Shown here one piece after another: positions 13,456 to 14,251 of a stretch of DNA of 15,712 nucleotides. The DNA comes from a virus. Its lineage: Duplodnaviria; Heunggongvirae; Uroviricota; Caudoviricetes. The DNA is taken from the IMG/VR virus record IMGVR_UViG_2700989173_000009. One strand, written 5' to 3'. Positions within the stretch are counted from its first letter, which is position 1. The number at the start of each line of letters is the position of its first letter. Made by a program: the position numbers and the translations under genes. The notes beneath the pieces were generated by a model, which was not told where the DNA came from, made no database searches, and saw only the letters and a program-made list of their open reading frames with translations.

Positions 13456-13704
13456 CTCACTGAGATTAAAGCAAAGCGCAAAATTGCGCTGGCTACATCC
13501 CTCACATCTGAGGACTGTTAACCAGCAGGCCGGAATATATTCAGAAACTACGAAATTTTCGCAGTTTAATTACTCGTCAGCTTAATCGCTAACCCGCTCT
13601 GATATTTTCGGAAACCTCAATTTGAGGAAGTCGGCGAGGTAACTGTTTGATATTCCCGATAGCGCAAAGATGCGCGGTCGGGCAGAATGACCACCACCTC
13701 AATC

Positions 13705-13740
13705 GTGACGGAGAGTGACAACCAGTGACACACCGTGACA
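13705..13740 (+). repeat. Four GTGAC(A) repeats at exact 10-bp phasing (13705, 13715, 13725, 13735), followed by the palindrome ACGGTT-t-AACCGT (13746-13758)
   Basis: Read directly: cGTGACggagaGTGACAaccaGTGACAcaccGTGACAaaaag. Related GTGACAC/TTGACAC elements flank the operon promoter at 2463-2527. Confidence 0.55.
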
Positions 13741-13792
13741 AAAAGACGGTTTAACCGTTCATTAAAAATCGACGTGATTTTGTGCTTTCCGG

Positions 13793-13817
13793 ATGACGTG
13801 GCCAACGTCATTTTTTA
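13793..13817 (+). terminator. Rho-independent terminator (stem ATGACGT / ACGTCAT, loop GGCCA, then T6)
   Basis: Hairpin 13793-13811 followed by TTTTTT; plus-strand oriented, probably terminating the packaging operon or a short transcript from the GTGACA region. Confidence 0.65.
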
Positions 13818-14118
13818 GCGAAAAATTCTGATTAAGGTCACTGGCTGAACGGTCATAATGACCACGCAGACCATCGAGGCAACCATAGCGATCATCGTTA
13901 CGGTTGGAGCTTTTCCGCCATTGGTGGAAAAGGTGCACATCTGGATCATCATTACGGTGATCAAGGGTATGTAAAACCCACCAGCCTGATTAAAGGTTAA
14001 CCGGAAAAAAAATCCGGTAGCCCCGTTATGGGGATCCCCATATCGACATTAACGCCCCTCATGAATTGGTGCGCTTCCCCCTGGAAAGATTACCCGCCTG
14101 TATATTTCTTGTGTCTAT

Positions 14119-14134
14119 TTGTTCCACGTTGTTT
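14119..14134 (+). repeat. Third copy of the 10-bp phased TTGTTC motif (TTGTTC 14119-14124, TTGTTT 14129-14134), about 120 bp downstream of the phoQ stop
   Basis: tatTTGTTCcacgTTGTTTca is almost identical to 6616-6646 minus one 10-bp unit. Confidence 0.5.
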
Positions 14135-14151
14135 CATACAGTGCACCGAAC

Positions 14152-14175
14152 GGTGTAGTTAATGGTGTAGTCAAT
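14152..14175 (+). repeat. Tandem 12-bp direct repeat GGTGTAGTTAAT / GGTGTAGTCAAT
   Basis: Read directly; 11 of 12 identical, immediately adjacent, 77 bp from the phoQ stop codon. Confidence 0.5.
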
Positions 14176-14251
14176 TTGCGATTTTTGGCACTTTTTCAAT
14201 GAAAATTGTTTGATCGAATCAATGACTTGATGTAGTGGTAAAAGGACATAT

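Follow-up and report, generated by a model that had tools for sequence, protein, structure and literature searches.

A phased GTGAC repeat cassette in the non-coding tail of a capsid-forming PICI-type satellite, possibly an orphan array of prophage-type origin iterons

The stretch of DNA analyzed here (IMG/VR record IMGVR_UViG_2700989173_000009; 15,712 nucleotides, hereafter the window) carries a capsid-forming satellite of the phage-inducible chromosomal island (PICI) type, followed by phoQ on the minus strand (14252-15712), as identified from the open reading frame (ORF) list, Pfam, and PHROGs. We focused on the DNA between the last satellite gene and phoQ (13456-14243), which is satellite DNA, not chromosome, and constitutes the non-coding right end of an element lying between roxA and phoQ. 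The central feature of this tail is a short cassette of GTGAC repeats in 10-bp phase, which we tentatively interpret as an orphan array of prophage-type origin iterons. The features on which this interpretation and its alternatives depend are as follows.

13174-13455, plus strand: last satellite gene, encoding a 93-aa protein (ORF list; phrog_1561, PHROG match 1.5e-55 with no named function)
13451-13700: hairpin-cassette zone located by a repeat finder, in which the leader TAAC-N4-6-TTGATATTyyCG, or a decayed copy of it, precedes a short palindrome
13704-13750, plus strand: portable iteron cassette of about 47 bp, cGTGACggagaGTGACaaccaGTGACacaccGTGAC-AAAAAGACGGT
13705, 13715, 13725, and 13735: starts of the GTGAC copies
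13740-13790: A+T stretch (65%, 51 bp) beside the iterons, containing the palindrome ACGGTTTAACCGT (13746-13758)
13791-13817, plus strand: intrinsic-terminator-like hairpin GGAUGACGU-ggcca-ACGUCAUUU followed by a U-run
13851-13863: palindrome GGTCATAATGACC, of which most of the array-bearing islands examined have a copy or variant next to the array
14099-14176, plus strand: proposed block of arm-type sites for the integrase (Int) in the P arm of attP, including the tandem GGTGTAGTTAAT GGTGTAGTCAAT at 14152-14175
14217-14229, plus strand: AATCAATGACTTG, a match to the IHF consensus (pattern WATCAANNNNTTR; consensus match only) between the arm block and the core
14244-14253: att core GGACATATTT at the attR junction, overlapping the phoQ stop codon, located by aligning attL, attR, and the empty site with one another
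5523-5760: replication origin of the satellite itself, comprising TCTACC/GGTAGA iterons, eleven in all and in both orientations, close behind the 3' end of the D5-type primase-helicase gene

Comparison with chromosomes placed the boundary of the element. In 5366 of 5426 complete E. coli genomes, the match to the query started only at 14244; 50 genomes carried most of the region, and the roxA-phoQ spacer of a satellite-free strain measured 75 bp. A reading made from the sequence alone (the sequence-only reading) had noted that ordinary intergenic DNA of the chromosome would be present unchanged in satellite-free strains. The region was not there in such strains, and homology began at the att core, so that the whole stretch belongs to the element. 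Because the window begins at the int ATG, attL was read from a relative with 90-98% identity, L001, an E. coli island between roxA and phoQ that is also the closest annotated relative.

The region looks non-coding. Between 13845 and 14099, the part covered by the comparison with homologues, variable columns numbered 39, 33, and 36 by codon phase, and the indels measured 1, 2, 4, and 10 nt. The earlier statement that the region holds no ORF of 60 aa or more was close to correct, with ORFs of 64 aa (ATG start; 13617-13811, minus strand) and 58 aa (GTG start) present; the small minus-strand ORFs (64, 58, and 50 aa) gave no match in Pfam or PHROGs. A blastn search of the region against 50,697 phage records returned no match, and four E. 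coli plasmids matched it, all in unannotated DNA. The region was likewise without annotation in every related RefSeq record examined. The suggestion that gene annotation had missed a functional part of the element was supported to the extent that the region is mobile-element DNA with conserved cis-elements that relatives leave unannotated.

All motifs listed in the sequence-only reading were found in the sequence, with a single 2-bp coordinate slip (GGTCATaATGACC lies at 13851-13863, not 13849-13861). The pattern CTCA-N(0-6)-TGAG occurs in the 15.7-kb window only at the three sites CTCAcTGAG (13456-13464), cCTCAcatcTGAGg (13500-13513), and CCTCAatTTGAGG (13615-13627), and the GC palindrome GGGGATCCCC lies at 14030-14039. 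Counting perfect stems of at least 5 bp with loops of up to 6, we obtained 17 palindrome centers in the region versus 5.2 +/- 2.3 in random sequences (0 of 400 reached 17), an approximately threefold enrichment; the other 788-nt tiles of the window contained 1-7. Four copies of a 5-mer at 10-bp phase, as in the GTGAC array, arose in none of 1000 first-order Markov random sequences, the maximum being three copies, in two of them.

The GTGAC cassette proved to be a conserved unit that changes its surroundings. Fourteen distinct versions share cGTGACggagaGTGACaaccaGTGACacaccGTGAC-A5-GACGGT, joined to five unrelated left flanks and three right flanks, one of which retains the palindrome ACGGTTTAACCGT. 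Each version carries four or five GTGAC copies, always in 10-bp phase, and varying positions amounted to 0 of 20 in the GTGAC core versus 4 of 15 in the spacers (Fisher p=0.026). Copies of the cassette were detected in 256 E. coli genomes; none of those in the 40 records listed coincided with an annotated feature. The array always lay downstream of the 93-aa gene, 6-270 bp from its stop codon. Presence of the array was uncoupled from replicase type (D5_N, AAA_25, DUF927), attachment site, and packaging module: it occurred in islands at six att sites with three packaging-module types, and it accompanied D5-type and AAA_25-type replicases while missing from other islands with the same replicases. 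The terminase small subunit (TerS) WP_000113645.1 was identical in array-plus (L001, L005) and array-minus (L009) islands, and an identical 93-aa protein was encoded at 10 loci, only one of which had the array. This lack of tracking of modules argues against the array as the element's own origin, a cos site, or an obligatory site for the satellite's proteins.

The same repeat class is found in phage replication genes. A scan of IMG/VR with the pattern GTGAC-N5 x4 yielded at least 120 loci in many unrelated sequence and G+C contexts. Among the matches listed, the array lay wholly inside an opposite-strand ORF of at least 100 aa in 90 of 120 and in none inside such an ORF on the same strand. A group linked by blastp comprised 62 of the 81 long array-bearing ORFs, and the PHROG names obtained for 36 representatives were replication initiation, replisome organiser, DnaD-like loader, and primosomal; the exceptions among the named PHROG matches shown were one portal ORF and one DnaC-like loader. 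The E. coli group consisted of Rac ydaU-type genes, PPompW prophages, and phages annotated 'DNA replication protein O' or 'replisome organiser'. A Rac ydaU-type initiator gene was present in 2211 of 5426 E. coli genomes (41%), and Shigella prophages also belonged to this class. The origin of lambda (ori-lambda) lies within gene O. Similarly, SPP1 gp38 binds direct repeats in its own gene 38 (oriL) and at the distant oriR (PMC6316719). Since the arrays lie inside initiator genes, as in ori-lambda and SPP1, we read phased GTGAC as the origin iterons of this initiator class.

Palindromes of the tail have counterparts in phage origins as well. Tandems of GGTCA-N3-TGACC at 4-30 bp spacing occurred at at least 120 loci, 98 of which, among the matches listed, were inside ORFs of at least 150 aa; all seven ORFs tested belonged to PHROG replication-initiator families, six including 'replication initiation O-like'. 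In tandem form, the class of the palindrome GGTCATAATGACC thus constitutes the iterons of O-like initiator genes in phages. Tandems of CCTCA-N3-TGAGG were found at 61 loci, one of them a lambda-type origin with an iteron containing the 13-mer of 13615-13627, and a control palindrome in the tandem scan gave 13 loci, further control or other palindromes 19 and 22. Exact scans for GTGAC-N5 and GGTCA-N3-TGACC arrays are consequently cheap markers for origins inside phage initiator genes.

Some details of these phage loci are recorded here as observations in their own right. On the opposite strand, the GTGAC-N5 arrays of loci L023-L142 encode a repeated S-x-x-V-T-x-x-H peptide in a protein linker, and GGTCAAAATGACC iterons likewise encode G-Q-N-D. 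Judged by eye, DnaB-like N-termini follow several of the array-bearing initiator ORFs. In four E. coli genome matches (H125, H127, H128, H130), RefSeq names the Rac-type initiator segment 'pyocin large subunit' or 'DnaT-like ssDNA-binding domain-containing protein', the former of which looks like a misannotation. In a family of high-G+C viral contigs (L024, L035, L056, L058, L092, L114, L118, L136, L139), 3-7 GTGAC repeats separated by identical 5-nt spacers shortly precede portal and follow an ORF that resembles, by eye, the C-terminus of the terminase large subunit (TerL); the repeat thus also occurs in a setting distinct from initiator genes. In the low-G+C phages L026 (array 771-815) and L048 (4885-4919), the array follows a small ORF and shortly precedes a terS-like gene, a position corresponding to a late-promoter or cos region; L026 has a further ORF between the array and the terS-like gene.

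The satellite has its own origin elsewhere. At 5523-5760, a structure without annotation in related records shows the organization described for Gram-negative PICIs (PMC6092414). The GTGAC cassette differs from such an origin in lying 8 kb away, in its iteron sequence, in consisting of one directly repeated set, and in not co-varying with replicase type; as the PICI origin structure sits at 5523-5760, the GTGAC region was rejected as the element's own origin. A search of 13456-14243 for TCTACC/GGTAGA iterons found none. In P4, crr is a second cluster of the iterons of its own alpha protein, 4.5 kb from ori. The GTGAC region resembles crr in being an additional iteron cluster at a distance from the origin of the satellite; however, crr repeats P4's own origin iterons and the GTGAC region contains none of the satellite's own, and it was rejected as a crr-like second set for this reason.

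The array itself has the properties of origin iterons, namely helical phase, at least three copies, a conserved core with freer spacers, and a repeat class that occurs in bona fide initiator genes. Nevertheless, no satellite ORF matched such initiator families in Pfam or PHROGs, and the array is intergenic; lacking an initiator in cis, it was filed as an orphan copy rather than a standard member of origin iterons. The absence of such an initiator from the satellite, together with a different origin of its own, makes binding in trans the most likely mode. Our preferred interpretation, to which we assign a probability of roughly 0.4 on the sequence evidence, is that the GTGAC array is an orphan prophage-type origin-iteron array that would recruit or titrate the initiator of a co-resident phage. 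In this model, the initiator of a co-resident or helper prophage would bind the cassette in trans, with two conceivable outcomes: binding could trigger additional satellite replication from the neighboring 65% A+T stretch, or the initiator could be sequestered by the amplified satellite. Transcription of the packaging operon would run through the cassette at the end of the operon, which would allow transcriptional activation of the kind known at ori-lambda.

Known systems offer partial parallels to such an array. Like ori-lambda and SPP1-type origins, it has short, helically phased iterons, four to five in number, next to an A+T-rich stretch and close to a palindrome, and like SPP1 oriR it represents initiator-type repeats outside any initiator gene. 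In contrast to gene-embedded phage origins, the satellite array is non-coding, the element has no cognate initiator gene, and the A+T-rich stretch is on the other side than in several of them. A decoy outcome has a precedent in plasmids with part of the lambda replication region, which, according to the abstract of the report, cause cells to exclude rep-lambda phages (PMC3349717); origin-region DNA away from the phage there blocks phages needing the matching initiator, although that case was a laboratory plasmid construct and the abstract leaves unstated which part of the region is responsible.

Several points weigh against the orphan-iteron interpretation. None of the phage initiator genes found matched the spacer set of the cassette exactly. 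The A+T-rich stretch is on the opposite side compared with several phage origins, in which a purine-rich tract follows GTCAC in the coding direction. HK106 and HK446, the known helpers of the prototype capsid-forming PICI, were not among the phages with a Rac-type initiator. Many otherwise identical satellites are without the array, which is accordingly dispensable for the basic life cycle. About one quarter of the viral GTGAC arrays are located elsewhere (in the terL-portal gap, upstream of HNH/terS, or beside integrase genes), so the motif class is not exclusive to origins. Finally, the GGTCA- and CCTCA-type palindromes are single in the tail and tandem in real origins.

Binding of the array by a protein of the satellite or host is an unlikely alternative, albeit one with several facts in its favor. 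The binder could be the AlpA-like regulator/excisionase, the 93-aa protein, or a ribbon-helix-helix protein such as MatP, and the role would be regulation, DNA compaction, or packaging, with no foreign initiator. Short direct repeats in phase are typical in general of sites for cooperative DNA binding. In addition, the array follows the 93-aa gene in every case, where the packaging operon ends, some of the viral arrays have a terminase or portal gene nearby, and the half-site of matS, the MatP site, is GTGAC. These facts are offset by the absence of the array from islands with the identical 93-aa protein and identical TerS, and by the absence of any other GTGAC cluster at att arms or promoters in the window. 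The AlphaFold model of the 93-aa protein was all-helical and of low confidence (pLDDT 68), without a match to a DNA-binding fold (best Foldseek E=0.7). Because matS is an inverted repeat, and the repeats here are direct and found at many chromosomal positions, MatP/matS was rejected.

The remaining part of the tail bears on a further alternative, that the array is a relic. We compared 21 related satellite tails from seven att sites, with three packaging-module types and three replicase types; all had the 93-aa gene last, followed by 510-1313 bp of unannotated DNA. The tails were mosaic, the same leaders being combined with different palindromes in varying order and number. The leader duplicates roughly the final 10 nt of the 93-aa gene, stop codon included, and the 3' end and stop codon of that gene form the start of the first hairpin cassette. 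In addition to the features listed above, the following palindromes and repeats were found.

13475-13490, 13500-13513, and 13545-13567: cassette palindromes AGCGCAAAATTGCGCT, CCTCACATCTGAGG, and AAACTACGAAATTTTCGCAGTTT
13615-13627 and 13661-13675: cassette palindromes CCTCAATTTGAGG and AGCGCAAAGATGCGC
13680-13692: decayed cassette palindrome GGGCAGAATGACC
13890-14045: palindromes and repeats, including the direct repeats GATCATCrTTACGGT (13890, 13944) around a palindrome at 13905-13937
14000-14018 and 14024-14045: further palindromes ACCGGAAAAAAAATCCGGT and CGTTATGGGGATCCCCATATCG

Pairing in the hairpin cassettes is maintained through compensatory changes, as far as the compared sequences indicate: GGTCATAATGACC is replaced by GGTGATAATCACC in L007 (GGTCAT/ATGACC to GGTGAT/ATCACC), and the stem CCGCC/GGTGG becomes CCCC/GGGG in relatives with pairing kept. 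Beyond the satellites, the leader 17-mer GTTGATATTTTCGGAAA was found only in unrelated coding DNA and in one variant cassette in L161. There, at about 10924 on the reverse strand of a different contig, GTTGATATTTTCGGAAA is followed by ACTCAATTTGAGT, a compensatory variant of CCTCAATTTGAGG, after an unrelated terminator, indicating that a hairpin cassette can occur outside the usual tail. In the array-less islands L015, L017, L018 (10488-10670), L019 (10489-10671), and L004 (3256-3414), an ORF of 52-60 aa was called in the tail; it sits in a cassette absent from the window and may be a real small gene. The sequence ACATCCCTCA at 13495-13504 equals the left arm of what we take to be the lambda origin iterons (AACATCCCTCAAA); it is followed by a spacer 1 bp longer than in that presumed iteron and then by GAGGA.

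On the strength of this mosaicism, the region could be mostly recombination debris and terminators, with the GTGAC array a functionless relic of a captured phage origin; exchange between satellites at the conserved leaders would then have stacked alternative 3' ends of the packaging operon. We consider this rather unlikely. It would account for leaders that copy the end of the 93-aa gene, for presence, absence, and order that differ among near-identical islands, and for a satellite copy that is already decaying, with a nonsense codon in its capsid gene. It does not sit well with an array core that stays unchanged while both flanks swap, with copy-number shifts that keep the 10-bp phase, with the compensatory changes in both palindrome stems, or with the retention of the non-coding tail in 21 of 21 islands.

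The hairpin downstream of the array raises the question of an RNA product. The G+C-containing hairpin at 13791-13813 (-13.7 kcal/mol, z = -2.2) has a 9-bp stem including two G-U pairs and a 5-nt loop, and with the following U-run to 13817 it has the form of an intrinsic terminator; it was missed by a simple scan for terminators. The capsid/terminase (packaging) operon probably terminates here, and after excision the hairpin would keep read-through transcription in the circle from reaching attP and int. That the array and terminator form a small regulatory RNA, as the sequence-only reading had offered, or a functional 3' untranslated region (3'UTR) element of the packaging operon appears quite improbable. 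The array would be transcribed as part of the 3'UTR of the operon, with a terminator-like hairpin on the plus strand behind it, and the right-flank variant of L010 and L085 likewise has a G+C hairpin and T-run within about 50 bp of the array. On the other hand, a search of Rfam 15 gave nothing at the gathering threshold in the whole window and nothing at E<=1 in 13400-14300, and no plus-strand promoter-like site was found upstream of the array. The five different left flanks imply that no conserved promoter travels with the array. The fold of 13690-13830 was ordinary (z -1.4), and changes in the terminator stem of relatives were not compensatory. The proposal of a short regulatory RNA was hence not supported.

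A last alternative concerns the integrase. The block at 14099-14176 has 79% identity over 80 bp to L001 1415-1493, just upstream of int, and contains GGTGTAG repeats at 14152 and 14164, 80-92 bp from the core. GGTGTAG tandems occupied the att-proximal end of the tail in 14 of 16 islands at 5 att sites and preceded phoQ, mdtJ (L009), or yifB by 76-93 bp. The tandem at 14152/14164 is likely, from its position and repetition, to represent Int arm sites of attP. The last ~150 bp of the region would then be the P arm of attP, comprising GGTGTAG arm-type sites to which the P4-family Int would bind, an IHF-like site, and the core. Of the earlier idea that Int-binding sites lie near attR, the general claim therefore stood, with the GGTGTAG block as candidate Int-binding DNA, and the assignment to the GTGAC array did not; Int binding in this att site is likely to be relocated to the GGTGTAG block.

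For the GTGAC array, lambda-type attP (P'1-P'3, core C/AAGTCACTAT) provides a parallel in its short direct repeats, which contain GTCAC/GTGAC and are spaced by about 10 bp. GTCAC is part of the lambda arm sites, an integrase gene adjoins each of three viral GTGAC arrays, and the Int here has an arm-binding domain. However, lambda arm sites are less than 150 bp from the core, and the GTGAC array lies at 500-800 bp, independent of integrase and att type: its end is 504 bp from the core at 14244, and in relatives about 540-780 bp separate it from the next host gene. Unlike lambda Int, the Int here is a P4-family enzyme (Arm-DNA-bind_3), for which GGTGTAG x2, duplicated in both arms, provides separate candidate arm repeats. 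No counterpart of the GTGAC array was found in the int-proximal arm of L001; moreover, the array occurs in two islands (yejO, rclA) without GGTGTAG, and many islands at phoQ, clpS, and mdtJ have the same arms and no array. Given this distance, its presence in one arm, and the lack of co-variation with the arms, it is highly improbable that the satellite integrase uses the GTGAC repeats as arm-type sites.

The remaining genes of the satellite are as follows.

1-1230: P4-family integrase with an Arm-DNA-bind_3 domain (Pfam)
1605-1793: AlpA-like excisionase/regulator
3767-5515: D5-type primase-helicase
Between the primase-helicase and HNH genes in the gene list: HK97-type capsid, protease, and portal genes
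10469-10909: HNH gene
Following the HNH gene: P27-family TerS, then TerL, which ends at 13160

The major capsid gene (6859-8016) has an in-frame stop at codon 276 (7684-7686), and relatives encode an intact 385-aa protein; given this nonsense codon, the satellite copy in the window is probably defective. The genome-contig scan returned a sole locus, in Shigella flexneri SFBU1023, with 1 mismatch to the window over 1201 nt around the region; being near-identical, it adds no diversity. For the 93-aa protein, there was no Pfam, PDB-sequence, or fold match, and the PHROG matches were only to function-unknown families; a single-sequence search returned 37 proteins, mostly fragments. The solved Rpp was dropped as a relative, as no kinship to any solved structure was detectable. 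In the prototype capsid-forming PICI, a mutant of 'hypothetical gene 1792' in the packaging module showed severely reduced, not abolished, transfer (10.1101/2022.09.08.507074); this gene could be a homologue of the 93-aa gene, the text of that paper leaving the gene identity unstated.

As to the cos site of the satellite, a search of the window for lambda cosN gave chance-level matches only, and the papers on capsid-forming PICIs that we searched gave no cos location and no mention of the tail region. The GTGAC array and its cassettes were rejected as a cos/pac site, given the identical TerS with and without the array; the gap between HNH and terS would be the more likely cos. Within this gap, the window has 50 N at 11118-11167, over the terS start. 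At the position of the N-run, L001 has a G-rich/C-rich segment (GACGGGGTGGGGGGCG...CCCGACCCCGCCGGGC), a plausible candidate for the cos site.

The tail as a whole may hold more than one kind of borrowed site. From the classes of motif present, it could be a hotspot of exchangeable cassettes imitating the binding sites of different temperate-phage initiators in E. coli and Shigella satellites, a broader proposal that we regard as distinctly unlikely. The classes may be GTGAC (Rac/replisome-organiser), GGTCA-N3-TGACC (one O-like class), and CCTCA-N3-TGAGG together with ATCCCTCA (lambda-O types). The resemblance of the single-copy palindromes to tandem origin iterons is taken as support for this more speculative proposal only. 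If this were true, an amplified satellite could sense, exploit, or starve whichever prophage replicates, and the tail would be a non-coding counterpart of the defense-gene hotspots of P4 and PICIs.

Satellites steal capsids, tails, terminases, and regulators from their helpers, and replication of E. coli PICIs is thought to be autonomous. Our literature search found no paper on this tail or on an orphan helper-type iteron array in PICIs. Iterons, arm sites, and terminators are known kinds of element; orphan, mobile iterons of a foreign origin in a satellite, if the present interpretation is correct, would be new. Such an array would add a layer to the interaction between satellites and phages for which no gene is needed.

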